From IMG/VR virus record IMGVR_UViG_3300042691_025398, positions 119,814 to 183,813 of that record: a stretch of DNA of 64,000 nt, one strand, 5' to 3'. Shown here in pieces: positions 26,481-50,391 of this stretch. Both the position numbers and the translations under genes were made by a program. How positions within the stretch are numbered: position 1 is the first letter of the stretch; the number at the start of each line of letters is the position of its first letter. Source of the DNA: a virus (Duplodnaviria > Heunggongvirae > Uroviricota > Caudoviricetes). The notes beneath the pieces are model-generated. The model had not been told where the DNA came from. It saw only the letters and a program-made list of their open reading frames with translations, and did no database searches.

Positions 26481-27373
26481 ATAAACTTGTTGATTCCGGA
26501 TTCTTCATCCATGTAGTCTGGATTGGCTTGTTCTTGTTGACCACGACGTCGTGAACAATACATTTCACAAGCCAGTGATGCCTCTTCTAAACTTTCAAAA
26601 GCAGTTGGCAAAACTTTTTCACTTACACTGACTCTAAATCCATCATCTTCGTTGCCGTGTATTCTAATTTCTTTGCCATCTGGGGTGTTTATGGTTTTCA
26701 ATGGCAAAAATTTTTCTATGTCTGGTTTTTGTAATTCTTGCTTGGCTTTTCTAATTAATGAACGATCGCGGCCAACCAGTTCGTCTTCAACACTGCGGAG
26801 ATAATCATGTAGTCCTCGACGGATCTTGCCCAGTACGTCTTCAGCTGCAATCATTTGCTGCACACTGTCTGTTTCTTTTACAGCATCTGTTTTTTTGGGA
26901 TATCCATGTTTGATATCTAGACTGTATCCACTAAGGCCTTTTTTATCCAGCACATCGCTGATAAACTGTTCTGCCTCTTTGGCATTGGTAAAACGATCAC
27001 CTAGATCATATTTGCGTGTTTCGCCATCAATGGTTACATAGGCAATGGTTATGGGCTTGACCACAGGTTCTGCTGCATATGAAGGGCTGCCTAAAGCTGT
27101 GGCGGCTGCTAGAGTAGCAGCACCAAGTGCTGACTTGATGCCTTCTTCAATGTCTGGATCTGCACTTTCACTTGCACCCACCGCATATCCTCGCATGGGG
27201 TGATCAGGATCGGTCTTGGCACCTAGCACTGATATTTTTGCAGGCTTGAACAGTGCAGGCAATTGAGGCACAGACTTCTGTTGTTTGTTTAGATCTTTTG
27301 ATAACTCAGCTGAGGTCACACTGCCTTCTGCAATGGTATCAAGTCGGGCTAGTATTTGATAAAAGTCGTTCAT
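26477..27373 (-). CDS. modular hypothetical protein (probable virion cargo)
   Basis: 298 aa; hydrophobic-x-E junctions (IAE, IEE, VKE); internal signal-like helix. Confidence 0.75.
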   Translation of the reverse strand: MNDFYQILARLDTIAEGSVTSAELSKDLNKQQKSVPQLPALFKPAKISVLGAKTDPDHPMRGYAVGASESADPDIEEGIKSALGAATLAAATALGSPSYAAEPVVKPITIAYVTIDGETRKYDLGDRFTNAKEAEQFISDVLDKKGLSGYSLDIKHGYPKKTDAVKETDSVQQMIAAEDVLGKIRRGLHDYLRSVEDELVGRDRSLIRKAKQELQKPDIEKFLPLKTINTPDGKEIRIHGNEDDGFRVSVSEKVLPTAFESLEEASLACEMYCSRRRGQQEQANPDYMDEESGINKFI

Positions 27374-27813
27374 GCTCGCGCCTCTTTTAAAAATGAGCGC
27401 AGCATCCAGCGATGTTTGCCCATGGCGTCAATTCTACCAGCAAGGAAATCCATGATACCCTGTTGATTTTCAGCTTCAGCATCTTGAAACGCCATGTTTA
27501 GAATCTCAAGCATTTTATCAGAATCTTGATATAATTCTTCAATCATGAGTCTAGCTCTTGGCACCTTGATCTGACCTTGGATTAGGGAAAGTTCTTGAAA
27601 TCGCTCAAAACTACCTGGTGCGTAGTCATCAAGGACTCTAATGAATTCTGCTGTGCGGTCTATGCTATTTCCATATACTTCTTCGTAGATTTCTCCAAAG
27701 AATTCATGCAACTGGGCAAAATCAGGCCCTTCTACATTCCAATGAAAAAACTGTGCTTTGATCACAAAAGCATAACTTGAGGCAAGAACTTTCTTTAAAG
27801 ATTCAGCTAGCAT
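27370..27813 (-). CDS. dps: Dps-family ferritin-like DNA protection protein
   Basis: FFHWNVEGPDFAQLHEFFGEIY, DRTAE and KHRWML. Start moved to MLAES at 27813. Confidence 0.85.
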   Translation of the reverse strand: MLAESLKKVLASSYAFVIKAQFFHWNVEGPDFAQLHEFFGEIYEEVYGNSIDRTAEFIRVLDDYAPGSFERFQELSLIQGQIKVPRARLMIEELYQDSDKMLEILNMAFQDAEAENQQGIMDFLAGRIDAMGKHRWMLRSFLKEARA

Positions 27814-27982
27814 TTTTATTCCGTTTAATTTGTTTAGGTTTTGGCCTATTTGCATATTTATAAGACGCAGGCGGCCTGCTCATTCTTGATACCATGGGCA
27901 TGTGCCCAAGTCCTGTGCTCACAGTTGCAATGTTGGCACTGCTGGTAGACATGTCTTCTTTGATAAATTCCCAAGCTCTCAT
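27803..27982 (-). CDS. 59-aa MRAxEF-motif protein (below ORF-track cutoff)
   Basis: Hand translation MRAWEFIKEDMSTSSANIATVSTGLGHMPMVSRMSRPPASYKYANRPKPKQIKRNKNAS*. Confidence 0.65.
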   Translation of the reverse strand: MRAWEFIKEDMSTSSANIATVSTGLGHMPMVSRMSRPPASYKYANRPKPKQIKRNKNAS

Positions 27983-27984
27983 GA

Positions 27985-28269
27985 TTAGCCTATCAAGATT
28001 ATTCCGTTGCTTTTGACTCTAACTGGTCCATATAAAGCCTGAATAGATATCACATCCAATGAAGCCAAACAAGGTTGTACCAGTTCAAATTTAATTTGGT
28101 ACTTGCCCGGTACAGCTTGTATTTGGAAAATTTCTTCTATTAGATTGTCAGTCCAAATCCAGGTTCTTTCAGTAAACAGCTCGTTGTTTACCCACGCACG
28201 ATAGGCAGGATACAGTCCCTCCCAGTGGCAGTTCAGCTTACAGGCAATTTTAACGATGTCATTGGACAT
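27985..28269 (-). CDS. hypothetical protein
   Basis: 94-aa ORF with TAAATA 4 nt upstream. Confidence 0.65.
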   Translation of the reverse strand: MSNDIVKIACKLNCHWEGLYPAYRAWVNNELFTERTWIWTDNLIEEIFQIQAVPGKYQIKFELVQPCLASLDVISIQALYGPVRVKSNGIILIG

Positions 28270-30131
28270 GCTATATTTAGCTCAAAATCGGCTGACATAT
28301 CCAAGGGTGTAAGAGCAATTGTGGCCTTGCCAAATCCTTCTTTTCTACGCAGAACCACAAAACTCACAAACTCTTCGATGTCCGCCCAAGATTCTGTTTG
28401 TCCTGATGAAAACTCGCATGAAACTGGAGCCTGTGTTATCACGGGTTCTTGATCTATGATCCAATCAATCAAATTGCTGGCCAGTGTGACTGTGGTCACT
28501 GGTGGCCCATATGGATCAATTACCCAGTATCGCTGTAGCTCAATCACTTCTTGTTGATTTTGATCCTCACAAATGCTGCTAAACCATGTGGCCAGCTTGT
28601 CAAGGTATAGATCGCGATGCCTATACATGTCTTTCACTGTGTCCCATAAAGCATAATATTCAATACTGCGACCATGTTGATAAAAATCATTCACTGTGTT
28701 TCTAAAAGCTTCTAGCTTTGGCTTAAAGAAATTGTCTGAGTTCAACCACTGTTCAAAGTGTTCATAGATGTGTTTGTAAGTGAATCCGCGCTTGCGCAGA
28801 TAACGAGCATATAACTCTGTCCATCCGTGATGATGAAACGTGATAATCAGCCAAGAAAACACCATGGCATCTACCATGTCTGTGGCTGTCATGGTACTGG
28901 TTTCTGTGGCCACATGCTGTTGTTCATTAATGCCACTACGAGCGCAGGTCCAATAATCTGATATCACAGTGCTTTTGATTTTATACTGTTCAACCTGTTT
29001 GGTCATTTCAGCGTTGCGCAGCAGTTCAATCGGAGCCACAAACACACATCCATGTTGACCCATTTCTATTAGATCCAGATGTCCTTGTCGCCAACTGTCC
29101 AGTGTTTCTTCTGGCATGCCTAGTATGAGTTCAGTATAGAAAGGAATGTGTTTGCGATTGCATGCATGAAACAATGAACTTTGATCGTTCAGTTTCATGT
29201 TCTTGCGTTTGATGGCTTCAAGCGTGGGTTCATGCATGCTTTGCACACTGAGAGTTAGCCCACGATTGAGACCATGACGAGTGAGTTCTTCTGCAATGTC
29301 TAGTATCACTTCATTGGAGTTTTTGTACCATGTGCAACTGATCTGTTGAGGGTATCCGTATTTTTGTTTGGTTTGAATAAAACATTCTGCAATGGCTCGA
29401 TCTCTATCTGGAAACACACCAAAGTTAGCATCGGCCAAGGATATGAATTCAATTTTGTTTTTACCAGCCCACTCTATTTCAGCAAAAACTTTTTCCAAGG
29501 GAAACTTCTTTATCTTGGCATAGGTAAGACTACCCCAGTCACAAAAGGTGCAGGGAAAAGGACAGCCTCTATTGGTTTCAATAGTCATGGCATAGGCGAA
29601 ACCAGGATCTGCAACCAAATGATCAAACATGCCCATTAGATAGGGACTGGGTACATCAAGGTCTTCTACTCTATGTGCAGCATAGTCTCTTCGCACACGC
29701 TGATCCAGTATGTCATTTAGCACTGTACGAAATGCAATTTCACCTTCATAGCGAATTGACACATCAATCCAGGGATTGTCCTTGCGCCATTGTCTTAGGG
29801 GTTCTTCTTCATTGGGAACATTAGGACCGCCGAAAATAATCACGCAGTTAGGGAATCGATCTTTAACAGCTTGACTCAGCGCAAGATTATAATTTTCATT
29901 CCAAATGTAATTGCTGAATCCACAAACAGCAGGATTTTCAAGACTGTTGACCACTTGGTCCACTGGATCACGCAAGATGCCAAGACCAGCCAAATGGAAA
30001 TTTTCCGCAAGTCTTGGATCAGTCATGGCGTAACTCCAAATGCAGCCCACTGTGTAGGGTAGCCATACCGAAGTGACATTGCCATGCCCCATTTCAAAAT
30101 TTGGGGCGTAGAGATACACGTTTTGTTTCAT
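28233..30131 (-). CDS. cobalamin-binding radical SAM protein
   Basis: N-terminal B12-binding Rossmann pattern (VCGFSNYIWN, IIFGGPNV), ETNRGCPFPCTFC, LADANF and ELILGMPEET. Confidence 0.85.
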   Translation of the reverse strand: MKQNVYLYAPNFEMGHGNVTSVWLPYTVGCIWSYAMTDPRLAENFHLAGLGILRDPVDQVVNSLENPAVCGFSNYIWNENYNLALSQAVKDRFPNCVIIFGGPNVPNEEEPLRQWRKDNPWIDVSIRYEGEIAFRTVLNDILDQRVRRDYAAHRVEDLDVPSPYLMGMFDHLVADPGFAYAMTIETNRGCPFPCTFCDWGSLTYAKIKKFPLEKVFAEIEWAGKNKIEFISLADANFGVFPDRDRAIAECFIQTKQKYGYPQQISCTWYKNSNEVILDIAEELTRHGLNRGLTLSVQSMHEPTLEAIKRKNMKLNDQSSLFHACNRKHIPFYTELILGMPEETLDSWRQGHLDLIEMGQHGCVFVAPIELLRNAEMTKQVEQYKIKSTVISDYWTCARSGINEQQHVATETSTMTATDMVDAMVFSWLIITFHHHGWTELYARYLRKRGFTYKHIYEHFEQWLNSDNFFKPKLEAFRNTVNDFYQHGRSIEYYALWDTVKDMYRHRDLYLDKLATWFSSICEDQNQQEVIELQRYWVIDPYGPPVTTVTLASNLIDWIIDQEPVITQAPVSCEFSSGQTESWADIEEFVSFVVLRRKEGFGKATIALTPLDMSADFELNIACPMTSLKLPVS

Positions 30132-30139
30132 CCGGTTAT

Positions 30140-30370
30140 TTAATAGGGACGTTTTTCAGCTTCACTTTTACAGCCTTCCCACCAGCTGTTACTATTACCA
30201 GGAGGACACATGGCAGGATTTGTAATGCCACGTGCTTGTGCCCATGTATCCCCAGCTTGATGGCCAGAGCAGTCTTTGGTACATGGATATGTACGCCAGG
30301 TAAGACCTGTGTCTACTTCGCGTATGCCTTTGCGTTTTGCACGTTTGCGAATGAATTCACGAGCTCGCAT
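30140..30370 (-). CDS. small Cys-containing MRAxEF-motif protein
   Basis: True start MRAREFI at 30370; YPCTKDCSGHQAG module. Confidence 0.7.
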   Translation of the reverse strand: MRAREFIRKRAKRKGIREVDTGLTWRTYPCTKDCSGHQAGDTWAQARGITNPAMCPPGNSNSWWEGCKSEAEKRPY

Positions 30371-30588
30371 TATATCAGTTTCTTTCCTGGCGGCAGGCGT
30401 TTTACTGCGCCAATATCGTGGGTTTTGATATTGTACTGTGCTTTGATTAGAGCGCGAGCTGCGGCTGCGCTGGGTGCGCTCACTGTGACATTGATTCTGC
30501 CAAGATAACCTGGTTGACTGATCTTGATCGTGGCCTGCCACAGATCATAATTTTGAATGGTATTTTCAAAAATATCAGTCAGTAACAT
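30370..30588 (-). CDS. small hypothetical protein
   Basis: True start MLLTDIFE at 30588, coupled to both neighbours. Confidence 0.65.
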   Translation of the reverse strand: MLLTDIFENTIQNYDLWQATIKISQPGYLGRINVTVSAPSAAAARALIKAQYNIKTHDIGAVKRLPPGKKLI

Positions 30589-30986
30589 TATTTCAATTGT
30601 CCTGTTTTCATAACAGCCGCGGCGTTTTTCATATTGGATGCTGGTGGTACCGCACCACCAGCTGCTGGATTGCCAGCACCGCGTGAGATACTGATGGGTC
30701 CAATCTTGGTTGTTGGTGGCTGTGTACGACCGGTCCAACTGCCGTCTGGTTTGGTTGAAGTTACATTAACATTTGAGGGTATGGAAGCGGAAGCAGCTCG
30801 TTGAGTTTTTATCTCTTGATCCATTGCATCAAGATTTTTAGTAAGGCTATTAGAGTAATCTTGAATATCCTGTGCAATGTTTTTGGCCATGCTGCCTGTG
30901 CTCATGGCTCCGGCTTTCACAGCATCTTGGTAGGGCATTTCAGATTCTGTTTTGGTTTTGGATTTTATAAATTCTTTTGCCTTCAT
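30588..30986 (-). CDS. MKAxEF-motif hypothetical protein
   Basis: True start MKAKEFIK at 30986 (ATGA overlap). Confidence 0.7.
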   Translation of the reverse strand: MKAKEFIKSKTKTESEMPYQDAVKAGAMSTGSMAKNIAQDIQDYSNSLTKNLDAMDQEIKTQRAASASIPSNVNVTSTKPDGSWTGRTQPPTTKIGPISISRGAGNPAAGGAVPPASNMKNAAAVMKTGQLK

Positions 30987-32314
30987 TTTTTTCGTCCTGA
31001 TTTCATGTTTGCACACCAGTGTGCCATGCGCTGGCGTTCACCCGAGCTGTTGCTGGCTATGCTTCTCAATTTACTTATTGACTGTTTGCAATTAACTCCA
31101 ACACGCTTGGCTAATCCCTTGCGTCCGGGCTTTTTACCATCGGCAAAGTTTTCTGTTACCCCATCATCGGGCTTTTTGAATTGCATTTTACGACCACTAC
31201 GCCATTGGTCGTACATCACTGCTGGATCTCGTTCCCACACAGTTTCGCCAGTGCCATCTTTAATTGTAAAGATTTGATTGTCTGCACTATCTGGATCTGT
31301 GTCTATTATAATCTCAACTTCTTGAATAGCCGGGCCCAAGGAGGGAAATTCTCCAATTAGATGTGAGCGATATGGATCGCCCACGTATAATTTAAATGGA
31401 CCAAATCCGTCTTCACCAGGATCAAATTCATAAAGTCTAACCACTGAAGTTACTCCGTGAGCATGGGGCTCACCGGGAATCACAGTGTTGAGCATGAGCG
31501 CACCACTGTCCAGCATCAACATGCCAAGTGATATATCAGTCTTTGGATCAAACACCCAGACTTTTTGGCCTGTTTCAACTTTTTTCAGTTTCTTTGACAC
31601 CTTAGACAAACGACGCAGTGTTTTTTCAACTGCGCTAATCTCAATGTTGCGACTTGCGGCTTGATCATAAAGATGTTTATGAATAGGTATTACTAGACTA
31701 CCAACAGTAGCAGTGCCAAGAATTTTTGGACTATACAACGTGCCAACAGTGGCTTCATCAACAGTGTCGCTGTTGATGTTGTAGATCTTTTTCAACTGTT
31801 CTATAGCTGAAGACGCATTGTTCCAACGGTACAGCACAGCTATACCGCCGTCGGCCTGCCAGGCATTTACATATTTTTTAAAATCATCAACCAACACATT
31901 TGCTTTGCCATTGGCAGTGGCATAGCGTTGTTTTTCATTAGTAAAAATAGCAGAGTCTGCGGTGCCTGGATGATGACGATTCAACCATGTGAGTTTGCCA
32001 CGTATGCTGGCGTCTTCATTGCCGCGTAATGGAGCACTTAGAATTGTGTACTGAATATTGTTGTCGCGTAGAAAAGCGATCAGTTGTTGTGCTCCTGGTA
32101 AAACTGGCAAGGTGGCAAAAAACTTTTCCACAAATTCTGGACCACGACTATTGAGGTCAGCGATACTGGCTTCACGAGCAGCACGATCACCAATTTCTTT
32201 ATACTGCTCTTTGCCAAACAGTCTAGCCCAGGCTGTGAAAAAATCAGCTTGTACTCCATCCATGTCTAGATATAGATGCGGACGATGGCCTTGCGTGAAT
32301 TCTGATGCTCTCAT
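30983..32314 (-). CDS. HAD 5'(3')-nucleotidase (NT5C-like) fused to C-terminal modules
   Basis: LYLDMDGVQADF (DxD), ILSAP, GKLTWL and VLVDD; MRASEF start; modules after VDE, LYE and VTE. Confidence 0.85.
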   Translation of the reverse strand: MRASEFTQGHRPHLYLDMDGVQADFFTAWARLFGKEQYKEIGDRAAREASIADLNSRGPEFVEKFFATLPVLPGAQQLIAFLRDNNIQYTILSAPLRGNEDASIRGKLTWLNRHHPGTADSAIFTNEKQRYATANGKANVLVDDFKKYVNAWQADGGIAVLYRWNNASSAIEQLKKIYNINSDTVDEATVGTLYSPKILGTATVGSLVIPIHKHLYDQAASRNIEISAVEKTLRRLSKVSKKLKKVETGQKVWVFDPKTDISLGMLMLDSGALMLNTVIPGEPHAHGVTSVVRLYEFDPGEDGFGPFKLYVGDPYRSHLIGEFPSLGPAIQEVEIIIDTDPDSADNQIFTIKDGTGETVWERDPAVMYDQWRSGRKMQFKKPDDGVTENFADGKKPGRKGLAKRVGVNCKQSISKLRSIASNSSGERQRMAHWCANMKSGRKK

Positions 32315-32931
32315 TATCTTGTCCTTGTAGCAGAGAACACCTTCATGTAATCCTTGAAGTTTTCGTGTCTATCTGCCAATCCATTTAACTTGGGGTTGAT
32401 TCGCTGTGTTACCGCACGAGTGTCGTTGAAATTGCTCACCGCAGGCCTCACACGACTGGCCCAGTACCACACAGCTATTTTTGCTGCTATGTCAGGTCTA
32501 CTGGCCAGTTCGGGTCGGTCTTCCAGTGGTAGTCCTAGGGCTTGTCCGGCACGGCGATAATTATCTCTACCAGTTATTTGTATAAAGCCACGGCCTTTGT
32601 ATCGCACACCATCACCTTTATAAACATTGCCTAGATCTCTGCGTCCTTCGTATTCTTTGCCACTAGCATATTCGTGCATGCGTTTGAATCCAGCTGATTC
32701 GTGAAAACACTGTGCGAGAAACTGTGCCAACTCAACTCCACGGATACCGGCTTGTTTTGCAGTGCGATGTAACAGCATTTCAGCATCAAAGTTTGCACTC
32801 AGAGCAGGCGGACTAACTTCAGGCGTGCGGGCTTGTGCACTGGGAACCCCGGCAGCAGACATAGCACCAGCACCCAAAGCTCCTAGGAATCCTCTACGAT
32901 CAATTTCCGTGATGAATTCAAGGGCTCTCAT
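32314..32931 (-). CDS. GH19 glycoside hydrolase (lysozyme/chitinase) with MRAxEF leader and Tat-like signal
   Basis: FLAQCFHESAGF and YKGRGFIQITG..NY; N-terminus MRALEFITE-IDRRGFLGALGAGAMSAAGVPSAQA. Confidence 0.88.
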   Translation of the reverse strand: MRALEFITEIDRRGFLGALGAGAMSAAGVPSAQARTPEVSPPALSANFDAEMLLHRTAKQAGIRGVELAQFLAQCFHESAGFKRMHEYASGKEYEGRRDLGNVYKGDGVRYKGRGFIQITGRDNYRRAGQALGLPLEDRPELASRPDIAAKIAVWYWASRVRPAVSNFNDTRAVTQRINPKLNGLADRHENFKDYMKVFSATRTR

Positions 32932-34052
32932 TTTAACTCCGTGTCACTTTTAGTAAAAGTATCAACAATCTTATAATGTCGAGGTCCTACCAATTCAAAA
33001 TCATACTTGTCATCGTCGTCAATTTTGAAAGGGCGAAGAAAATGTCTTGTCTTACGCTTAATTGCTAACGCACCGTTAGGAGTAAATCCTGTTTGCTCGA
33101 GGTCTGCACGATAAACTCTGCCCATTGCACCAATTACTGCTAGGTCTACTTGATAACCTTGCTTTAATAATCTATCAGTAATAGTAACAATCTGGCTGAT
33201 CCCTTCACCATCATCACCATCACGGTCGTCTAGGAATTCGTTTAATTGTGCATTGAAAATTAACTCTGCAAGTTTAAGTGCATTGTCTCTAGTTTTTGGG
33301 ATCGCTACACCGGCTTTACGACCTCTGCCAAATCCTTGTTCATAATCAAGCAAATGAATATTAACAGTAGGGTATTCACCTCGCTTACCTACTAGACTAT
33401 AAAGTATTGCACCGTTTCGAGTTTTGTCTTTTGGTTCAAACTTTACGCTAACTTGCTCTGGTCGTTCGCCGTCTTTTCTAGTATATCCACGACCTAAATA
33501 TTGCTCTATAATATCAGCAAATTCAGTTAGTGGGAAAGACTCAGGATCTTCTTTACCGCCATCACCAAAGTCGGGAGTTGGTGCAAATTCATTTAAGGAA
33601 TCTTCCGCTACACCCGGATTCGTGCTGGTCAGTTCATAACTTACGCCATGTCCTGATTCCCAACGATCAACACGATATCCTAACGCACTGGCATAACGCT
33701 GTACTAATCTATCATATAATTTTGCACGACTGTCTGACTGTTGCGATTCGTCTTTTTTGGCTGCTTCAAATGATAACGACCTTGGATGATACTTTTTAAT
33801 AAATTCAGCTATTGCTGCTAACACAGTGGCAAATATTCTTTGTGCGTCACCTTCGCCAGTGACTGATTGACTGTGTCCACGCCAAAACTCTACAGAATAC
33901 TCATCTTCCCCTTCCTCATTGAACATAATAGAAAGATATGCCCCATCAGGAAGTAAAACTAGTGCATCGTGGTCATTGCCGTGATCACCTTTTTCCCAAC
34001 GTAGGTTATAGGGTTGATCAAACGCTTCAATTATAAATTCTTTAGCTCTCAA
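32928..34052 (-). CDS. modular MRAxEF-motif protein
   Basis: TTG start overlapping the upstream TGA gives (M)RAKEFIIE; internal module headers LNEFAP and LNEFLD. Confidence 0.75.
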   Translation of the reverse strand: MRAKEFIIEAFDQPYNLRWEKGDHGNDHDALVLLPDGAYLSIMFNEEGEDEYSVEFWRGHSQSVTGEGDAQRIFATVLAAIAEFIKKYHPRSLSFEAAKKDESQQSDSRAKLYDRLVQRYASALGYRVDRWESGHGVSYELTSTNPGVAEDSLNEFAPTPDFGDGGKEDPESFPLTEFADIIEQYLGRGYTRKDGERPEQVSVKFEPKDKTRNGAILYSLVGKRGEYPTVNIHLLDYEQGFGRGRKAGVAIPKTRDNALKLAELIFNAQLNEFLDDRDGDDGEGISQIVTITDRLLKQGYQVDLAVIGAMGRVYRADLEQTGFTPNGALAIKRKTRHFLRPFKIDDDDKYDFELVGPRHYKIVDTFTKSDTELK

Positions 34053-34717
34053 TCTAGCAACCCTCCTAACCATAACACAAAAGGATCATTTACAACGATA
34101 GTACCGTCGGCTCGTCGCATGTAATTTCCTTTATGTAAATCAATTGAGTATCCTTGCTTACGTCCAAAACGTTTGACATCATACACTGTGTTTAGTAAAT
34201 TCGCTGCTGCTCGCTTACCACCTAAATGCTTTACAGCGTCTTTTAACTCATACCACGTACCACCGCCTTCATCGTTGAACGTATGCATAGCATACTGAGC
34301 TATTGTTTGAAGTTCTTTTTTGTAATCTGTTTTACGTTTCTTTATAACTTCATCAACATGAGCAACTAGATATCCTATTTCGTCAGGTAACTCTTGCAGT
34401 GGTTCCATCCTTGCTTGAATATAATTTTGACCTTGAAATCTAAAACTTTCAAATCCTGAAAATCTTGGCAGGTGCGGATTTTTTTTATTTTTATTGCAAT
34501 AGTTGATCCAGTTAATAAACATACGTTGATCAGGGCTGAAATCTTTTTGACCTTTACGATAACCAAACACAATCAACACCTGTCCTGTGCCTGGCTCCAG
34601 GTAGGCTTGTTTGTCAATACCACCACCTAGATATTTGTATCCTTTTTGTGACAAGGCTTGGCTTATGCCAACATTAATGACACCGGCCATTTCTGTGGTG
34701 AATTCGGAGGCTCTCAT
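34049..34717 (-). CDS. protein-kinase-like (PKL fold) protein with MRAxEF leader
   Basis: Gly loop YLGGGIDKQAY, MEPL, catalytic DLHKGNYM and VVNDPF. Confidence 0.7.
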   Translation of the reverse strand: MRASEFTTEMAGVINVGISQALSQKGYKYLGGGIDKQAYLEPGTGQVLIVFGYRKGQKDFSPDQRMFINWINYCNKNKKNPHLPRFSGFESFRFQGQNYIQARMEPLQELPDEIGYLVAHVDEVIKKRKTDYKKELQTIAQYAMHTFNDEGGGTWYELKDAVKHLGGKRAAANLLNTVYDVKRFGRKQGYSIDLHKGNYMRRADGTIVVNDPFVLWLGGLLD

Positions 34718-37700
34718 CTCGCTGGTACTACCATAAATTCACCGCTGCCCAGTAGGCCTTGTTGTCTTAACCAATTGGCGGCGTATACATTTGCCTCACC
34801 TTGGTTACTACGATGTACAAAACTGTACACTTCACGATCATTCGGGTCTAATATCAACCAACGAGTATTACCTGGTGGTAGGCTTTCTGTACCACGTGCT
34901 TGATCTTGTTGTCCAGCTAATCTTTGATTTATGCGATCCTGTGTAGATCCTGGAATCGGCGTTCCGTCAGTGGGCCTGCCTTCTATAGGGCGAACGGCAT
35001 ATCTCGTGCGCCAACTGCTGTCACCAGGTTGATATTCTCCTGTTCCCTGTACCCAATCGCTAAGTTTTGCTATTGCTTCTTGGGCGGTGTTGGCGATAAA
35101 TCTAAACACCACTCGGTCCGATCCACCGCTACGATCTATGATCTCATAGTTGGCACCGCTAGTTGGTTCGCCTCCTGCCCGACCTACTGGATTGGCTTCT
35201 ATAGATCTAACACCTAATCCTCTTTCTGCCAATCCAGCACGCACACGATCCATGGCAGCATTGGCATTAGGAGCTCTAGTGTTAATATCATGTGGATGTC
35301 CGTAGTCATCTGTCCATTGAACATTATAAAGTTGTTCTGTTTGTGCTGCTGGTGCAGATGTATTAGCAGGCGAACCATCTATTTTATAGGCAGTGTTGGT
35401 ATTAAGATCAATGATTCTAATATCTTCAGGGGTAAGGTTATATCTGGGAGTACCAATGTATATGTTGGTCATTTCAACCGTGTATGCAAAAGTTCGTGTT
35501 GCGCCGCCTAATATTACTTGTCCATCTCTATTATCAATCACTTGATATATGCTGGTATGCGGTGCTCGGGCAAATCCACCACCACCTGTGGATCTTGGCC
35601 GCATCTGTGGACGTACATATATAGGATCATCAAATCCTGTTTGCTCCTGCCATCTTTGGGCGTATCTTTCTGCATCCTGAATAGCATTACCTATGCCACT
35701 TATGGTGTGTACAACTTCGTCAGTGGATCTACTTACAACTTCCCATGTACCAGTAAACTCTTGGTCACGGCTCGAAGTTTGTGATTGTGTACCGGTATTG
35801 TATCTAGCAGGCCTTCCGTCAATGTCATAGACCTGACCATTGTCGGTGTTTATGATACGGATATCTGCACGACGTATATTGTTGCTCAGAGCTATCTCTG
35901 CTGCTGCTTGGGAGGCATAAATGAATGTTCCACCAAGACCTTGTAACATATTGCGAGTAGCTTGATTCATGATGGCCCACGAACCCGGTGTATTACTTGT
36001 CGCTGCTGGATAATCTAGAGGAGTAGCTGTAGAGTCTGAATCAGACGGACCTTGGTCAGGCGAAAGTTTCTTCAATTTACGCTGTTGTTGTGCTTGCTTA
36101 ACGAAACTCTTTAATGCTGACTGTGGTAGTTCTCCAGCTGCATAACGTGCAAAGAATTGAATAGTGTCATCACTTTCGCCTAGAGATAGAGTCTTGTACA
36201 ACTTCTTCATGTACTCTTGACGATATAATTCGGGTTTCATGGCAATGTCTAGTGCCACTGTAAAACGCAGTAGAGTGTTTTTAATCTTATCTGGATCAGC
36301 TGCATATTCCCCTAGCCAATCACCCCCAGGGCTACGAAACTCAATGTATCCATCTTTGGTGTTGATACTGGTGTATTTGTTTGTGGTGCCGGTGTGTACA
36401 ATCTTTGATGCCATGGCACTGAGATTGCCTTGCATCTGTTGCAGCATGGTCTTGACTTTGTCAGGATTGGTGCGGGCGATCTTTTTAATGTTTTCCATGG
36501 CACTGGAACAGTAGCTATTACCAGCACGACCAAATTGATCTAACACATACTCATCGCCCAAGAATATGGCCAACTTAACATAGTCAAGTTTGCTGAGTTC
36601 AAAACCAGGAACACTCACATTCATGTGCAAACCAGTGGTGCTGTTGGTGTAACAGTCGTTACGAGCAGCCCATTTCACCACCTTGTCTAGATCAGATAAC
36701 ATCTCATCTAAGGGCAGTGGCGGGCTAATAAATTCCAATCCGCCGTCTTCGGGATTGTCAGGATCACTAAGACTGCTGTCTGTTTCTACACGATAGTTAT
36801 CGGTTTGACTACCAGCACCACTGTGGTAACCACCTGATTTAACTCTGCGACCAATGGCTGATTGGAAATCACTGGCAACGTCGTTGATGTCTATACTACC
36901 ACCGCCGCTGTCAGAATATAACACATAGGGCCAATCAAGACTAAATTGATTGCCGAAGTCCAACATGGTATCGATGTCGTTATCGCTTAAGAAATCTTCC
37001 CATTGATCTTCGCTTTGATATTCTTCTTGGAACTGTTCCATGGCACGGTCATGTTCTGGACCGCCAGTTTCGTTCGCCACAGTAAGAATACGCTCCTGGT
37101 AGTCTTCGTCACTTTCACCGTCGTCCTGTGGAAGTTCGTTTTTGAGATAATCCAAGAACACGCTATAATTATCGTCTGACCACTCCTGGAAGTTTTCGTC
37201 TTTCCATGCCCAGTAATCTTCATCTAGTCTGTCAAGGGCACGTTGAATTGTGCTGGTAGTGTTACCGTAATCGCCGCCTCTAAAGAAGTCCATGACTTCT
37301 CTCTGCCAGCCACGACCAGTTGGAAAACTTTCGTCCATGTCATAGTCTGGCTCAACCTCTCCATAGTCTTCGTCGGCTTCGGCAGCATTGGGCACATACA
37401 TTTCGAATTCCATGCCGGCTATGGCACCAGTTTTAGCGGCCATCTGTCGGAGATTACTGGGACTCATGTTTACTTCGTTTAGTTCTTCTTCGTCTTTAAT
37501 TGATTCTAGCAAACGATTGAGTTTTTTCATGAGCAGCTGAGGATGTCCTTGACTGTCCACGTCTAGATTTAATTTGTTTGCTTCTTGACCTATTTGTCCT
37601 GGTTTGATATCCACAGTGAGAGCCATTTTGAATCTTGGATCTTTGGCCTGCCGTTTGGTTGGGATATATCCTGAGCTTTCTCTTACATTAGGCTCGCCTC

Positions 37701-39501
37701 TTAATCGGTCTCTCAATCTATTGATTAATTCTTCCTTGGCGCCACCTAGGCCCATGTCTTTAACTGACTGTGCTGTGCGTCCTACGGTCTGTACTCCACG
37801 TAGCACATCAGTGGTAGGAGAATCAGTAGTGGCACAACCTGGTGTGCCTGCTATGCAAGCCGCAGCAGCCGCGGTGCCCAGTGCTGACTTCCAATCTTCA
37901 TCTACATTGTAAGTGGGATCAACCTTTTGGCGAGGAATGTTTTTAGGTTGTTTAGGATCAACAGGATCAATGTCAGTGGTTGATAGGCCAGTTTTTTCTA
38001 AATCCTTGATGTATTCATGTTCGGTGTCTTCGTCGCCAAAACTGATAATGGCACTGGGTGGGCCTTTGCCAAAATCATGTTTGCCAAGGCCTTTCATGTT
38101 GCTAATGTGCTGTCCCAGTTTGTACCAGTCGTACACATCACTCACGTCCACTTTAACAGTGCCTGCTGGCATTGTGGGTTTGGATTCAGGTCCTGGTGGA
38201 GTTGCATTGGGATCATAGTCTTCGCCCAGATCCGGATCAAACATGTGAGGATTCTGTTTGTTCCAATGCCGCATGATTTCACCAGCCTTGGCATTGGCTT
38301 CGTTTTCCCATTTGCTTCCGGTTTTGCCTGCATCAGGAGGCAACGGACTGGTCTGATCTTGAGCAGCATGCACTAGTTCATGTGCAAGTGTTCGCAGGAT
38401 ATCAATGATATGTCGATCCACCACACTGATGTGCAGAGTCTTGGTCGTGTGATCATATTGCCCAAAGCTGTTGGAATTCTTGCTCCAGCTGGAATCGGAA
38501 TGTGTGCGTATTTTTGGCAAGCGTTTCATGCCCAACTGTCGAGCACAGAACTTGGCGAAATCAGCTATGGTACTGCGAATGTCCGTTTTGTTGTCTTCAC
38601 TAGTGAACATTCTAGTGGTTGGACTTACGCCATCCCAACTGCTGCCCACGTCTTCGCGAACACTTTCACCGCCACCGCCATCTCCACCACCGCTGTCGCT
38701 GCCAGACTCTCCACTGCCGCCGTAATATCCAAAACCAGGATACCAATAACCGCCATAGGCATAACGGCGACGTGATTTTTTACGCTTGCGTTCTACCAAG
38801 CTGAGTTCATCATCCTTGGCCTGCTGTCGGGCTGTTTGTAATTTTTCTATTACGCCGTTAACTCTCAGCAGTTTGAACACAAGATTTTCTGTGCTGAATT
38901 CACCCTTCTGCTCCAGGCCTGCTTTGCGCATGTCTTTGATTTTTTGCCAAAGACGATCCATGGTCTCGCGTTCTCGAGAAGCAATGGCCTGCTCAATTCT
39001 GGCTTCTAGATCTTCGGCTTTGTGCTGTACAGATTGGTCGTCAATGTCAGCACGTTTGCGACGCGGCACTGACAGCCATTTATTTTGTAGAATACTGTAG
39101 ATGCCTTGACTCACATGTGTATCTCCAGCGGGCTGCACATACAGCTCTACATCTGAGCCTCGCACACGAAGATCATGCTGGTCGTTGTATTGGTACTTTT
39201 TGGCGTTGAACAGTTCACGATACACTTCATCTGACAGTTCAGGAATGTCCACCACAAGGTGTAGATCTATGTCGCTGTTGGGAGTGTAATTGAAAGCAGC
39301 ATTGCTGCCTGATATAGTGATGTCTTTGACTTCTAGATTTTTAACACCCAGAAATTCTCTAAAGTCATCAGCAATGCGCAACAGAGCGTCGCGCACTTCG
39401 GGGCGCAGATTTTCATCTTTGCCCCAAAGTCCAGGATTAAGCCGATCGTGAAATCTAACAGCGTCGGCTAAATTATAGTTTTCCAGTTCATCGATATGCA
39501 T
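34714..39501 (-). CDS. 1595-aa multidomain protein: Pol-beta-like nucleotidyltransferase, zincin HExxH module, putative amidoligase (COOH-NH2 ligase type 2), C-terminal repeats
   Basis: GSNA...SDIDLHL; LAHELVHAAQ; GMEFEM...VETDSSL...LEFISPP...GLHMNVS...YIEFRSPG. Confidence 0.8.
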   Translation of the reverse strand: MHIDELENYNLADAVRFHDRLNPGLWGKDENLRPEVRDALLRIADDFREFLGVKNLEVKDITISGSNAAFNYTPNSDIDLHLVVDIPELSDEVYRELFNAKKYQYNDQHDLRVRGSDVELYVQPAGDTHVSQGIYSILQNKWLSVPRRKRADIDDQSVQHKAEDLEARIEQAIASRERETMDRLWQKIKDMRKAGLEQKGEFSTENLVFKLLRVNGVIEKLQTARQQAKDDELSLVERKRKKSRRRYAYGGYWYPGFGYYGGSGESGSDSGGGDGGGGESVREDVGSSWDGVSPTTRMFTSEDNKTDIRSTIADFAKFCARQLGMKRLPKIRTHSDSSWSKNSNSFGQYDHTTKTLHISVVDRHIIDILRTLAHELVHAAQDQTSPLPPDAGKTGSKWENEANAKAGEIMRHWNKQNPHMFDPDLGEDYDPNATPPGPESKPTMPAGTVKVDVSDVYDWYKLGQHISNMKGLGKHDFGKGPPSAIISFGDEDTEHEYIKDLEKTGLSTTDIDPVDPKQPKNIPRQKVDPTYNVDEDWKSALGTAAAAACIAGTPGCATTDSPTTDVLRGVQTVGRTAQSVKDMGLGGAKEELINRLRDRLRGEPNVRESSGYIPTKRQAKDPRFKMALTVDIKPGQIGQEANKLNLDVDSQGHPQLLMKKLNRLLESIKDEEELNEVNMSPSNLRQMAAKTGAIAGMEFEMYVPNAAEADEDYGEVEPDYDMDESFPTGRGWQREVMDFFRGGDYGNTTSTIQRALDRLDEDYWAWKDENFQEWSDDNYSVFLDYLKNELPQDDGESDEDYQERILTVANETGGPEHDRAMEQFQEEYQSEDQWEDFLSDNDIDTMLDFGNQFSLDWPYVLYSDSGGGSIDINDVASDFQSAIGRRVKSGGYHSGAGSQTDNYRVETDSSLSDPDNPEDGGLEFISPPLPLDEMLSDLDKVVKWAARNDCYTNSTTGLHMNVSVPGFELSKLDYVKLAIFLGDEYVLDQFGRAGNSYCSSAMENIKKIARTNPDKVKTMLQQMQGNLSAMASKIVHTGTTNKYTSINTKDGYIEFRSPGGDWLGEYAADPDKIKNTLLRFTVALDIAMKPELYRQEYMKKLYKTLSLGESDDTIQFFARYAAGELPQSALKSFVKQAQQQRKLKKLSPDQGPSDSDSTATPLDYPAATSNTPGSWAIMNQATRNMLQGLGGTFIYASQAAAEIALSNNIRRADIRIINTDNGQVYDIDGRPARYNTGTQSQTSSRDQEFTGTWEVVSRSTDEVVHTISGIGNAIQDAERYAQRWQEQTGFDDPIYVRPQMRPRSTGGGGFARAPHTSIYQVIDNRDGQVILGGATRTFAYTVEMTNIYIGTPRYNLTPEDIRIIDLNTNTAYKIDGSPANTSAPAAQTEQLYNVQWTDDYGHPHDINTRAPNANAAMDRVRAGLAERGLGVRSIEANPVGRAGGEPTSGANYEIIDRSGGSDRVVFRFIANTAQEAIAKLSDWVQGTGEYQPGDSSWRTRYAVRPIEGRPTDGTPIPGSTQDRINQRLAGQQDQARGTESLPPGNTRWLILDPNDREVYSFVHRSNQGEANVYAANWLRQQGLLGSGEFMVVPAR

Positions 39502-39519
39502 ATGAACTGTATTTATTGC

Positions 39520-44389: not shown

Positions 44390-46657
44390 TTAGTTGGCTA
44401 AACCACCATCTAGCACAATTAAACCATCAGGCTCCACCCTATGAGTCTGTAGTGGCTGCACATCAAAAGTGATTTCTTGATCATAATCAATATTGATCTG
44501 GCAGTCTTTCAACTGTTCAAACAGTATGCGTCGGCTCAGTGGCACCCGCACCAGTTCGTCAATCTTGCGGCTCAAGGGTCGTGCACCCATCTTGCTGTCA
44601 TAGCCCTTGGCTGCTAGATGTTCCACAGCTGGTTCACTCAGTGTGATTCTAATGTTGTGTTTCACTAGACTGCTGCGCAGCTCGTCTACGAATTTCACCA
44701 CGATCTTCTTGATAGCCAGGGTATCCAGCTTGTTGAACTTGCAGATTTGATCAATACGATTGCGCAGCTCTGGACGGAAGAATTCACGCAGTGCACGATC
44801 TTCTTCGCCTGTGCGTTCAAGATCAACGCCAAAACCTATGTTGTTGTTTTCATTGTCACGCGAGCCTAGATTACTGGTCATGATCACAATGGTGTTCTTG
44901 CAGTCCACGGTTTTACCATTGCTGGAAGTGATGCGTCCTTCGTCTAGCAATTGTAGCATGATATTGATCACGTCTGGATGAGCTTTTTCAATTTCGTCAA
45001 ACAACAGTATGGCAAATGGATTCTTGTTTAGATCACTGATCAGCTTGCCGCCGCCCACGTTGCCATCTTCAAAGCCCACATAACCAGGGGGTGCGCCAAT
45101 CAAACTGCTCACTGTATGACGCTCTTGATATTCACTCATGTCATAGCGCAGCAGTTTCATGTCAAGATTTTGGCTCAACAGTTTGGCCAGTTCGGTTTTG
45201 CCTGTTCCAGTTGGACCAAGGAACAAGAAGCTGGCAATGGGACGGCCTGCCTTGGCAATGCCTGCAAAATTGATATAGATTCGTTCCAGCACAGAATCCA
45301 CAGCAGAGTCCTGACCATACAATGCGCTCTTGACATTGCTTTCCAGTGTCACGATGTTTTGACTGGATTCTGATTTCAGCTTGTCCACAGGCACACCACT
45401 GACCTTGCTCAACTGTGCTTGAATCATGTCTGCTGTGATTTCCACTGTGCCAGCATCACGCACACGCTCACGAGCACACGCAGCGTCTATGAGATCAATG
45501 CTTTTGTCTGGATTCTTTTTGTCATGGATATAACGGTCTGCCAGTTCAACCGCAGTGGTTATGGCCGCAGTGGAAATTTCCACATTGTGGAATTTTTCCA
45601 ATCTTGGGCTAAGACCTATGAGAATCTGTTCGGTTACTTCAGTGGTGGGCTCGTCCACGGCCAGTCTATAGAAACGACGCATGAGCGCACGATCTTTTTC
45701 AAAGCTTTCGTAAAACTCTTCCCAGGTAGTGGAAGCCACAACCTTGAGATTGCCCTTGGTAATAGCTGGCTTGAGCATGTTGGCCATGTCCAGTGTGCTG
45801 CTTCCGGAACTGCCCGCACCACGCATGGTGTGAGCTTCATCAATGAACAACACGCATTTCTTTTTGGTTTCCAATGCGGCCATGACCAGCTTGAACTTTT
45901 CTTCAAACTCACCGCGATACTTTGATCCTGCCAACAAACTGCCAACTTCCAAACTGAACAGCTCGTGATCCTTGAGAAACTCTGGCACACGATTGGCTGC
46001 CATTTCCTGTGCAAGTCCTTCTACAATTGCAGTTTTGCCCACGCCCGGGTCACCAACCATGAGCACGTTGCTCTTGAATCGTTTGGCCAGCACTGTGATC
46101 ATTTCGTCAAGCTCACGATCTCTTCCGATCATGGGCTCCAGTTGATTGCGATTGGCCATTTCAGTTAGATTCATGCAATACTCATTCAACACTTCGGCTG
46201 CTTGCTCAGAAGTGAGTTTGCTTTCGTCTCTAACCTGTGTTTTGTTATAGTGTTCAATGAATTCCTGTTTGCTCACGCCGTGTTTGAGCAAGAAATATTG
46301 AGCATGTGAATTGGTTTCCATCATGATGGAAAGATATATGTCAATCACGTTGGTTTGACGTCTACCTGTGAGCATTACAGAAGTAAGAGCTCGATTGAAC
46401 AAGCGTTCCAGTGCGTGAGTTTTCTTGGGTTGATCCGTGGAATTTCTGGCCACATTTTTTTGTGCATCAATATAAGCCTCCAGATCACTTTGCAGGCTCA
46501 CCACATCAGTGCCAAAGCGTTCCAGGATCTTGCGAAAATTGGGATACATCACCATGGCCAATAGCACATGTTCCACAGTGATATAAGCGTTCTTGCGTTT
46601 CTTGGCCATCTGGATCGCATGGTCAACGATTTTTTCAATATCAGGATTGGGAGTCAT
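44390..46657 (-). CDS. clpA: ClpA-type Hsp100 AAA+ unfoldase
   Basis: Clp N-domain, Walker A GDPGVGKT and GPTGTGKT, Walker B FIDE and LFDE, IGF ClpP-docking loop, no ClpB M-domain (755 aa). Confidence 0.88.
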   Translation of the reverse strand: MTPNPDIEKIVDHAIQMAKKRKNAYITVEHVLLAMVMYPNFRKILERFGTDVVSLQSDLEAYIDAQKNVARNSTDQPKKTHALERLFNRALTSVMLTGRRQTNVIDIYLSIMMETNSHAQYFLLKHGVSKQEFIEHYNKTQVRDESKLTSEQAAEVLNEYCMNLTEMANRNQLEPMIGRDRELDEMITVLAKRFKSNVLMVGDPGVGKTAIVEGLAQEMAANRVPEFLKDHELFSLEVGSLLAGSKYRGEFEEKFKLVMAALETKKKCVLFIDEAHTMRGAGSSGSSTLDMANMLKPAITKGNLKVVASTTWEEFYESFEKDRALMRRFYRLAVDEPTTEVTEQILIGLSPRLEKFHNVEISTAAITTAVELADRYIHDKKNPDKSIDLIDAACARERVRDAGTVEITADMIQAQLSKVSGVPVDKLKSESSQNIVTLESNVKSALYGQDSAVDSVLERIYINFAGIAKAGRPIASFLFLGPTGTGKTELAKLLSQNLDMKLLRYDMSEYQERHTVSSLIGAPPGYVGFEDGNVGGGKLISDLNKNPFAILLFDEIEKAHPDVINIMLQLLDEGRITSSNGKTVDCKNTIVIMTSNLGSRDNENNNIGFGVDLERTGEEDRALREFFRPELRNRIDQICKFNKLDTLAIKKIVVKFVDELRSSLVKHNIRITLSEPAVEHLAAKGYDSKMGARPLSRKIDELVRVPLSRRILFEQLKDCQINIDYDQEITFDVQPLQTHRVEPDGLIVLDGGLAN

Positions 46658-46680
46658 TGGGTTCCTTGGTAGTTTCTTGT

Positions 46681-46709
46681 ATTATATACAAATTGAGTTT
46701 AGTGATCAA
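46681..46709 (-). promoter_or_regulatory. sigma70-type promoter for clpA
   Basis: TTGATC-N17-TATAAT, followed by an AAGGA SD. Confidence 0.65.
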
Positions 46710-46729
46710 TGGTTTTGGTGTAAAAATAC

Positions 46730-47521
46730 TTAGCCACCAACTTCTTGTTGAATAGCAGCCATTAATTCTGGTGATACTGATTCGGGTAACTGAGCCTGTG
46801 CTCGCACCATTAGGTCTCCAGCACGACCCTGTGAGTCACGTAAGCCAAAGCCGCGTACTCGCAGCATGGTACCGGGTCGGGTGTGCGCAGGCACACGCAC
46901 TGTGAGTCGTTGATCGGTCAAGGTCACAATTGTAATTTCACCGCCTAATAACAGTGTCCAAATGCTCACCGGATGATCCAGTAGCAGTGTGGCACCTTGT
47001 CTTTGCCAGGTGGAATCTGGTTTCACACGAAACTGTACCAAAAGATCCGCACCGTTGGGAGCCATGCCTGTGTACTGCACAGTCTGCCCATCATCAATCA
47101 TGTTGGGAATTTCAATCTCCACTAGACTGCTGCCCGCTGACGTGGAAACGTTGAGAGTGCGCTTGCCGCCTTGAACCACATCACGCAGCGTTATCCATAA
47201 ACTCATGCGCACCTGTGGTCGGCTGTTGCGTCTGCCCATGTCAGCACCAAACATGCTGAATATTTGATCAAAGTCAAAACCACCTGGACCTGCGGCAAAA
47301 CCCGGACCAGCTTGAAATCTAAAGCCATTGGGTCTTGGGTTGTCATATTCTGCACGTCGTGCAGGGTCTCCTAGCACATCATAGGCCGCTTGAATTTCTT
47401 TAAAGCGTGTTTCATCACCGCCACGATCCGGGTGATGCTGCATGGCCAATTTGCGAAAAGCTCGTTTGATATCTTCTGGGCTGGCGTCCTTGTTGACGCC
47501 TAGTGTTTGGTAATGAGTCAT
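46730..47521 (-). CDS. class II J-domain protein (DnaJ/CbpA-like)
   Basis: J domain with HPD, G/F-rich linker, DnaJ C-terminal domains, no Zn finger. Confidence 0.9.
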
Positions 47522-49304: not shown

Positions 49305-49541
49305 TTATTCTGTATTTTTTTCCGAGCGAGTGAATCGGAATTTTTCAGCTGCGGTAAAACCCAGACCACCCAGCACAATATAGGTAATGGACTCTAGTGT
49401 GGCTGCACTCACTGTGAGTCCTAGAAATAGTTCGGAAATCACAATGGTGGCCAGCAGCAAAAAGGCCAAGAGCGTGATCACTCGTTTGCTGCTGGGGTTC
49501 TTTTCCTCTTCAGCCGTGAGCATGGCTATGAGAAATCGCAT
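49305..49541 (-). CDS. two-TM holin-like protein
   Basis: Two hydrophobic helices and a charged C-terminus, inside the lysis cassette. Confidence 0.5.
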   Translation of the reverse strand: MRFLIAMLTAEEEKNPSSKRVITLLAFLLLATIVISELFLGLTVSAATLESITYIVLGGLGFTAAEKFRFTRSEKNTE

Positions 49542-50006
49542 TTATCGCTCCGGATGCGGTGGCTCAGTAGGAGCCGGTTTACCACCAAATCCTGCTGTGA
49601 CCTGTGGTACAAAGTCACTTAAAGAAGGCATGGCTGGCGCAGTGAATGCAGCTGGTGCTGTGGCACGAGGTGCAGGTTCAGGTGCAGGGGCTGGAGGTGG
49701 CACATAGGGTTTGTTTGCAGATTCCAAGGCCTTGGCACGCAGATCTTTGTCTTCTCCTGCCAACATGATGCCTGACAGTGTGCCGGTCAAAAATGTTGCA
49801 ATGGGAATAATTAATTCAAAGAATTTACTGTCAACTGGTGAAATTTTATTTGTAGGCTGTGTGACAAATATCAAACTGTACAGTACCACAAACACAATAC
49901 CAAACAAGGTAAGTCCAAGAATAATACCAATAAAGAATTTCAACCTAGCATTTAATTCGTCTGTGGTGTATCTAGGTCCTTCCCACATGTCTTTAATCAT
50001 TTGCAA
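49542..50006 (-). CDS. two-TM membrane protein with Pro/Ala tail (holin/antiholin candidate)
   Basis: FFIGIILGLTLFGIVFVVLYSLIF and LIIPIATFLTGTLSGIML. Confidence 0.55.
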   Translation of the reverse strand: MQMIKDMWEGPRYTTDELNARLKFFIGIILGLTLFGIVFVVLYSLIFVTQPTNKISPVDSKFFELIIPIATFLTGTLSGIMLAGEDKDLRAKALESANKPYVPPPAPAPEPAPRATAPAAFTAPAMPSLSDFVPQVTAGFGGKPAPTEPPHPER

Positions 50007-50242: not shown

Positions 50243-50243
50243 A

Positions 50244-50390: not shown

Positions 50391-50391
50391 G

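Follow-up and report, generated by a model that had tools for sequence, protein, structure and literature searches.

Gene organization of the operon

The stretch of DNA analysed here (the window; 64,000 nucleotides) comprises positions 119814–183813 of a 192,332-bp contig (G000:C1; IMG/VR record IMGVR_UViG_3300042691_025398) with a CheckV completeness of 55%, which belongs to an uncultured giant (jumbo) T4-like freshwater phage. On the minus strand the window carries an operon, running from position 39501 to 27803, in which seven genes coding proteins of otherwise unrelated sequence begin with the same short peptide, M-[R/K]-A-x-E-F, named here the tag. The polypeptide that follows the tag is called its cargo. 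The genes of the operon abut without intergenic space and their order is 1595-aa protein, G, F, E, D, C, C2, B, B12 radical-SAM gene, 94-aa open reading frame (ORF), A.

The first gene (34714–39501) codes a 1595-aa multi-module protein with Pfam and PHROG matches, which starts with MHIDE, does not carry the MRAxEF tag and is a candidate cargo polyprotein. It is followed by the tagged gene G (34049–34717), whose 222-aa product MRASEFTTE↓MAG... (arrows mark the end of a tag or of a module) has a protein-kinase-like fold in an AlphaFold2 (AF2) model and matches PHROG 15752 (E 3.7e-6). Tagged gene F (32928–34052; 374 aa; weak DUF6934 match) starts at a TTG codon and codes (M)RAKEFIIE↓AFDQPY.... 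In the product of tagged gene E (32314–32931; 205 aa) the peptide MRALEFITE precedes a twin-arginine (Tat) signal at residues 10–30 and a GH19 domain (Pfam GH19, 44.8 bits). Tagged gene D (30983–32314; 443 aa; MRASEFTQG) codes an NT5C-type 5'-nucleotidase at residues 14–165 (Pfam NT5C, 32.3 bits; PHROG 2643, E 1.7e-21) with an uncharacterised carboxyl-terminal part. Next come tagged gene C (30588–30986; 132 aa; MKAKEFIKS), whose product is basic, gene C2 (30370–30588; 72 aa) with the degenerate tag MLLTDIFE, and tagged gene B (30140–30370; 76 aa; MRAREFIRK), whose product is basic and Cys-rich (CTKDCSGH). The tags of D, C and B have no Glu at position 9 (Glu9). The operon then includes the untagged gene of a B12-binding radical S-adenosylmethionine (SAM) methyltransferase-like protein (28233–30131; NCBIfam KedN5-like, E 1.2e-66, below the cut-off of that model), which is outside the tag system, and it ends after the 94-aa ORF with tagged gene A (27803–27982). 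The 59-aa product of gene A, MRAWEFIKE↓D..., has an isoelectric point (pI) of 10.7 and is like a T4 internal protein.

A conserved amino-terminal tag

A preliminary description of the window listed the seven tagged starts (27982, 30370, 30986, 32314, 32931, 34052 and 34717), and their positions, peptides and minus-strand orientation are all exact. The DNA pattern DTGMRNGCNNNNGARTTY, which codes [M/L/V]-[R/K]-A-x-E-F, has seven matches in the window, compared to a mean of 0.13 ± 0.39 and a maximum of 2 in 100 dinucleotide shuffles of the same DNA. A six-frame scan of the complete contig recovers the same seven M-[RK]-A-x-E-F starts and none elsewhere. Every tag is found at a genuine ORF start and most of them overlap the preceding stop codon (ATGA, TTGA or TAATG). 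For gene F the start at a TTG codon (34052) is backed by homologues beginning MRAQEFIVEAFDQPY. Past residue 10 the seven proteins are without mutual similarity (E > 0.2 in all BLASTP comparisons), which agrees with the claim that the sequences downstream of the tag are unrelated.

Looser versions of the tag had also been put forward at three positions. The start MLLTDIFE of C2 (30588) is a degenerate tag: the C2 cargo is homologous (E 3e-7) to a protein of the related genome G005 that starts with MKAQEFITR. C2 is thus probably an eighth, degenerate member of the tagged set. The start MLLFDLITE (59683) is the sole other one of the contig that matches the relaxed pattern, and MRYQDFN is present at 42125.

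Codon usage within the tags is variable. Arg2 is coded by AGA, CGA, AGG or CGT and Ala3 by all four GCN codons, while synonymous or similar codons are found for Glu, Phe and position 7; the DNA upstream of the tags is not conserved. With synonymous variation at each of the conserved residues and no conservation upstream, selection acts on the peptide and not on a DNA element.

Distribution of the tag in related phages

By protease sequence the nearest cultured relatives of the source phage are Phosso, SCTP-2, PA5oct and the 121Q/Rak2 group (51–57% identity). A megablast search of positions 27000–35000 against cultured phages gave no match. Among uncultured relatives, L002–L008 (two found via gene G and five of eight found via the radical-SAM gene) carry two to seven tagged genes each, with partly different cargos, and the consensus of their tags is MRAxEF[IVL]xE. 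The three most distant radical-SAM relatives (L009–L011) have no tagged genes. Scanning IMG/VR with the exact pattern yields at least 120 stretches, many with several matches, and the combined tag-bearing loci code for at least 229 unique tagged proteins in at least ~89 cargo clusters. Note that Phe6 is fixed by the search pattern. In the 75 tags that were not chosen by this pattern, I, V or L occupies position 7 in 88% and Glu occupies position 9 in 72%; in 51 of them residue 9 is the end of the first [ILV]xE of the protein.

Five complete or nearly complete relatives (340–525 kb) have four to seven tag matches each, compared to 0 for the reversed pattern, which served as chance control beside the window shuffles. 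The tagged genes of G005 (352,754 bp) lie at four places of the genome and all matches are at true ORF starts.

The commonest tagged cargo of the clade has 117–141 aa and no Pfam match, with at least 108 members in at least 66 loci (e.g. L035:5639–6064; G005:C1:263121–263878). Its genes are often found in tandem pairs ~370–400 bp apart, and it is absent from the 55%-complete contig studied here. This family may correspond to abundant internal proteins. A short motif, ENFADGK(x)P, is found near the carboxyl terminus or in the middle part of several unrelated tagged proteins (the carboxyl-terminal part of nucleotidase D, L058, L003:11211–11549 and L021) and may be a further shared module.

The prohead protease and the conserved module joints

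The contig codes for a Peptidase_S77 protein of the gp21 type (G000:C1:16248–16886; 95.8 bits) beside the portal, scaffold and capsid genes. Its alignment with T4 gp21 (159 columns) shows 37% identity and conservation of the "HP" and "GVSSRG" motifs, which contain His and Ser, respectively. The capsid protein of the contig has a sequence, YLKE↓NATGG, that aligns to the maturation site FLTE↓AEIGG of T4 gp23. S77 proteins are coded by all nine tag-bearing records of at least 166 kb, including the five complete genomes; shorter tag-bearing fragments (17–35% complete) are uninformative in this respect. The cleavage preference of gp21 is I/L-x-E (PMC12991175).

The family of gene G relates the tag to sites of this type. 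It has 204 homologues at E <= 1e-5, and in 97 of the 120 listed the tag is found at the start. In stand-alone forms the tag abuts the kinase-like module directly (...EFTTE↓MAGEIHGG). In 90 fused forms among the listed homologues, other modules are placed between the tag and the kinase-like module (HicA-like, DUF6934-like, CTKDCSGH, DNPDYDED and others). The three residues that precede MAG in these fused forms are L/V/I in 89 of the 90, E/D/N in 89 and Glu in all 90. The place held by Glu9 of the tag is therefore that of the Glu in a conserved internal [LIV]-x-E joint. These joints are the strongest new evidence, at the level of sequence, that the tag would be a CTS-like element removed by cleavage.

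The 1595-aa protein features a nucleotidyltransferase module (NTP_transf_2; residues 1–235, the end being placed at residue 235 by tblastn), a basic RKRKK/Gly-Tyr module, an HExxH region, an Amidoligase_2 domain and a long carboxyl-terminal part. Tagged genes that stand separately in relatives align to this protein with joints at the module borders. A relative's tagged protein mraxefITE↓RKKRK... corresponds to the joint ...LVE237↓RKRKK, a second one, mrareftle↓dNPDYDED, to the joint ...DLGE427↓DYDPN, and a third one, mraQEF...QLDE↓IAMNPRSL, to the joint ...LLE666 or LNE676↓VNMSPSNL. The fourth joint is T-S-E303. Three of the four joints coincide with one of the 15 [ILV]xE sites present in the 1595 residues, for which our own rough estimate of chance is ~0.004.

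Module 1 is a stand-alone gene in T4-like cyanophages. Mass spectrometry of purified S-CREM2 virions detected its homologue ORF156 (6 unique peptides), alongside ORF155 and the cytidylyltransferase ORF154; the authors warn of possible contamination (PMC10665884). The start of ORF154, MKNFSSFLTE, is similar to the T4 CTS. The enzymes reported in S-CREM2 virions (SAM hydrolase, kinase, cytidylyltransferase and endolysins; PMC10665884) resemble the present cargo in kind, ORF156 being related to the polyprotein nucleotidyltransferase module. They differ in that the cyanophage tag is distinct from MRAxEF and that its authors did not analyse tags or processing.

A second likeness is to the "polyvalent proteins" of phages and conjugative elements, in which several unrelated enzymatic domains follow one another and for which injection together with the phage or plasmid DNA was predicted; Kinase-PolyVal and ParB_N are among their domains (Iyer, Burroughs, Anand, de Souza and Aravind 2017; PMC5512222). 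Such proteins are defined by at least two unrelated enzymatic or effector domains of recurrent types in one polypeptide, and the 1595-aa protein combines NTP_transf_2, HExxH and Amidoligase_2, while related tagged fusions hold Kinase-PolyVal, ParB_N, GNAT and GH19. Metallopeptidase-like HExxH domains and peptidoglycan hydrolases are further common elements, and release of modules by proteolysis was proposed there too, through autoproteolytic metallopeptidase domains (PMC5512222). Unlike in polyvalent proteins, the modules described here also exist as single tagged genes, their joints carry a motif of the T4-type prohead protease and do not depend on a peptidase domain of their own, and they include an amidoligase, a domain that is absent from PMC5512222. 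The inner-body or ejection proteins of phiKZ-like phages (201phi2-1, phiKZ gp175, SPN3US gp245) provide another parallel, since many of these head proteins are cut after Glu by a gp21-related protease at multiple sites each. They belong to another lineage and use another motif, and no single short common amino-terminal tag was described among their propeptides.

Properties of individual cargo proteins

The enzymatic annotations given in the preliminary description hold: the nucleotidase of D and the GH19 of E pass the Pfam thresholds, and the kinase-like fold of G is backed by a model and a fold search. The AF2 model of G has a pLDDT of 83, and among the best 50 PDB matches listed nearly all are protein kinases or enzymes of the kinase fold (probability ~1, but TM-scores of only 0.3–0.4). 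The conserved motifs D-x-H-x-x-N and N-D are found in this family. A pI above 9 is found for six of the seven tagged proteins compared to 12.6% of the other ORFs of the contig (p = 2.5e-5), and for 38% of the wider set of tagged proteins. Relatives add GNAT, Kinase-PolyVal, ParB_N, Amidoligase_2, LysM-SLT, DUF6934 and DUF6321 to the repertoire of cargos.

Throughout the small conserved family of gene A, the tag columns M1, R2, A3, E5, F6, I7 and E9 are invariant. The homologue of gene B in L092 starts with MRANEFINE and has Glu9. In the gene C family homologues start with MRAKEFVKKSATEAEM and MRAREFVKKKSYQEAEM and share a conserved E-[AS]-E↓MP at residue 16; a tblastn search of the 132-aa protein against cultured phages gave no match. 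The tag of gene D leads straight into the HAD DxD motif. Homologues of gene F are coded by KVP40-like Vibrio phages (L012:7974–8855, KVP40.0058; L013:6010–6870), adjoining the alt gene. They have other short leaders (MIIFEDINPLCE and MIIFE), which also end in Glu directly before AF(D/S)RP. A literature search for the KVP40 virion proteome (KVP40.0058 family) returned nothing usable.

Gene E combines the tag with a signal for export. The match to TIGR01409 TAT_signal_seq (18.1 bits; cut-off 16.7) covers residues 10–30, IDRRGFLGALGAGAMSAAGVPSAQA, directly behind the tag. The twin-arginine layout is found in full: S/T-R-R-x-F-L-K, a hydrophobic stretch and A-x-A near the amino terminus. The succession of tag and Tat layout recurs on GH19 proteins of relatives (L002:8733–9353, L125:11404–12042) and on a LysM-SLT cargo (L120:413–1297). 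Three small membrane-protein ORFs come after a second, untagged GH19-like gene of the contig (50392–51033; 213 aa; 23.9 bits, slightly below the Pfam cut-off). This group (49305–51033, minus strand) is a likely lysis cassette, its enzyme being a more likely lysis enzyme than gene E.

Two untagged genes are co-oriented with the cargo genes, one coding a Dps-like ferritin-fold protein (27370–27855, minus strand) and the other the KedN5-like radical-SAM protein; the latter is coupled to the cargo genes. Just upstream of the cargo region (44390–47521, minus strand) the phage codes for a DnaJ-like protein and for a double-AAA+ protein of the ClpA/ClpB type, which is full-length (755 aa) and includes a Clp_N domain.

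A late promoter-like motif upstream of the operon

The core of the T4 late promoter TATAAATA, ATAAATA, has 20 copies in the contig. Fourteen of them are directly before genuine ORF starts, several of which belong to tail- or head-type genes, compared to 8–30% for 19 of 20 permuted 7-mers. The strict form TATAAATA has five sites in the contig and is uninformative. One ATAAATA copy, AATAAATA (39510–39517, minus strand), has its end 8 nt upstream of the ATG of the first operon gene, which codes the 1595-aa protein; this position fits late expression of the operon.

The distance between this motif and the start codon is often small. ATAAATA is found 4–8 nt before the start codon in 6 of the 16 gene-proximal copies of the contig (window 39502–39517; contig 18094, 107657 and 180641, minus strand) and, among the 15 tagged genes of relatives that have the motif at most 100 nt upstream, 4–8 nt before the ATG in 11. 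Should transcripts begin a few bases past ATAAATA, as they do in T4, such late messages would have no leader or hardly any.

Similarity to the T4 capsid targeting sequence

The T4 precedent that was invoked for the tag is as stated: NC_000866 encodes MKTYQEFIAE at the starts of ipII and ipIII, and published work describes prohead loading and a cut after Glu10. The CTS peptide loads proteins into the prohead core and is removed by a single cut after Glu10; T4 internal proteins are basic (PMC8442874). Suppressor mutagenesis assigned targeting mainly to residues 4 and 7 and processing to residues 8 and 10, and a CTS with Asp at position 10 keeps targeting while cutting is blocked (PMC9026906). 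Aligned from the Glu, the tag retains E-F-I-x-E, that is Phe7, Ile8 and Glu10 of T4. MRAWEFIKE of gene A has EFIKE in common with the start of T4 gp61.1 (MKTFKEFIKE). The latter is a 54-aa hypothetical protein (NC_000866, 18966–19130, minus strand) coded beside the primase gene, outside the annotated internal-protein genes, and its start is CTS-like.

As in the T4 system of IPII and IPIII, with IPI, Alt and the polymorphic internal-protein loci of T-even phages, a short amino-terminal peptide is carried by unrelated, mostly basic proteins. Its core is identical and ends in an I/L-x-E site for the gp21-type protease that the phage encodes, the tagged genes are a handful per genome, and their cargo varies among related phages. 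In contrast to T4, the tag is one residue shorter and has M-R-A for M-K-T-Y, and its cargos include large enzymes and fusions of several modules, where those of T4 are small inhibitors. The Glu is missing from some tags, some cargos have a Tat signal behind the tag, and the system is known from sequence alone.

As the best-supported explanation, MRAxEF[IVL]xE is probably the version of the T4 CTS used in this lineage, a signal for loading into the prohead that would be cut by the S77 protease before delivery of the cargo with the DNA. The operon 39501–27803 would be transcribed late from an ATAAATA-type promoter, and its products would be brought by their amino-terminal tags into the scaffolding core of the prohead. 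Cleavage behind the Glu of [IVL]-x-E by the S77 prohead protease would then release the tag; in fused or polyprotein forms, modules would be separated by cuts at the equivalent internal joints. Once freed, these mostly basic proteins, among them the nucleotidase, the GH19, the kinase-like protein and small basic ones, would remain beside the DNA inside the head and pass with it to the next host. Each of these steps, from targeting and cleavage of the cargo to its packaging and ejection, is deduced here from gene and protein sequences. The mechanism itself is known from the T4 CTS and gp21 processing; the novelty lies in the sequence variant, in the enzyme and polyprotein cargo and in the clear joint rule.

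Several observations weigh against this reading. Tyr4, one of the two targeting residues of T4, has given way to Ala or a variable residue. Three of the seven tags of the window (FIRK, FIKS and FTQG of genes B, C and D) do not have Glu9; these proteins may be targeted and left uncut, like the T4 Asp10 variant, or be cut elsewhere or further downstream. The Tat signals of gene E and of the LysM-SLT cargo of a relative predict export in the producing cell, which is at odds with simple loading into the capsid. The conserved Glu before a module might in principle be part of the fold of that module. Within cargos the observed/expected ratio of [LI]xE is 0.78 compared to 1.19 in controls. When each cluster is represented once, the ratio is 0.75 (z = -2.3) and that of [LI]xxE is equally low (0.76), a depletion that is weak and unspecific. 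The source phage and all its tag-bearing relatives are uncultured, and a tag search in PA5oct, SCTP-2, Phosso and 121Q found one chance match inside a PA5oct gene and no EFIxE-type starts. The nearest cultured relatives being without tag, there is no experimental bridge inside the clade, and the virion proteins of PA5oct annotated by mass spectrometry offer no comparison. A complex prediction for the prohead protease (alignment of 10 rows) and the 59-aa tagged protein (alignment of 7 rows) gave no answer (score 0.00) and is no evidence either way.

The proposal of the preliminary description, a CTS-type signal removed by the prohead protease, stands in part. It is supported by the CTS residues, the S77 gene, the [LIV]-x-E joints, the late motif, the basic cargo and the virion-detected module homologue. 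It is complicated by the three tags without Glu9 and by the Tat signal of the GH19 protein, for which the simple model does not account.

Alternative roles of the tag

The tag and the [LIV]xE joints could be signals for processing alone. They would then direct a Glu-specific maturation in the cytoplasm, for instance removal of an inhibitory propeptide, by the prohead protease acting outside the head or by the HExxH module of the 1595-aa protein, and the cargo would be neither loaded in the capsid nor injected. The joint analysis is compatible with this possibility, as it reveals conserved sites of the cleavage type and not packaging, and so is the HExxH motif, given the autoproteolytic metallopeptidases proposed by Iyer et al. 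(PMC5512222). An [IVL]xE site has no need for M-R-A-x-E-F, yet this is the most invariant part of the tag and it matches the targeting half of the T4 CTS, including Phe7. Together with the detection of a module homologue in S-CREM2 virions and the basic character of the cargo, this makes a role restricted to processing improbable.

Less probable still is a recognition peptide, read either by the embedded radical-SAM enzyme, in the manner of the leader of ribosomally synthesized and post-translationally modified peptides (RiPPs), or by a phage ClpA-type unfoldase or N-degron machinery, and leading to modification or timed degradation of the proteins. The presence of the B12 radical-SAM gene (28233–30131) inside the cluster and of a ClpA-like gene 10 kb upstream would be in line with such a role. 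A homologue of the embedded enzyme is found in none of the 120 tag-bearing loci (1.05 Mb), and in the complete genome G005 the nearest one is more than 47 kb from any tagged gene; with no genomic linkage to tagged genes, the radical-SAM leader was rejected. An N-degron would need a particular bias at the residue after Glu9, which is not seen.

A conserved start that is a feature of the nucleic acid (a translation re-initiation or coupling module, or a recombination linker for cassette shuffling) and codes a functionless peptide is the least credible of the alternatives: most tagged genes do start in ATGA, TTGA or TAATG overlaps, which partly favour an A-starting second codon, and cargo modules clearly shuffle among phages, but synonymous codons vary at every conserved residue, conservation reaches Phe6, [IVL]7 and Glu9, 15–27 nt into the gene, and the tag is kept on uncoupled genes such as the 11 of 15 that have ATAAATA within 8 nt of their ATG.

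Implications for jumbo T4-like phages

With the tag read as a CTS, the cargo is presumed to act first in infection and would likely counter host defences; its role as an anti-defence or takeover kit, suggested in the preliminary description, is speculation. Several enzyme types of the cargo, namely a nucleotidase, a kinase-like protein, an amidoligase and a GH19 with an export signal, are not known among T4 internal proteins, and the findings point to a modular evolution of the cargo.

A broader proposal can be made for the clade of 190–525-kb uncultured T4-like phages, in which the injected proteome would be readable from sequence, MRAxEF[IVL]xE identifying the cargo and [LIV]-x-E the cuts made in the head. 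According to the same proposal, clipping of the tag would expose the Tat signal of some peptidoglycan enzymes, which would be injected into the cytoplasm of the new host and then exported to the periplasm by the host Tat machinery. Taken as a whole we regard this proposal as rather doubtful, and the two-step route of gene E from the capsid to the cytoplasm of the next host and on to Tat export is speculative.

The [LIV]-x-E joint rule and the E-F-I-x-E core, which is conserved even among very remote relatives of T4, are concretely testable. Provided that the tag has the function it has in T4, the proteins that uncultivable phages inject together with their DNA could be listed from metagenomic sequence.

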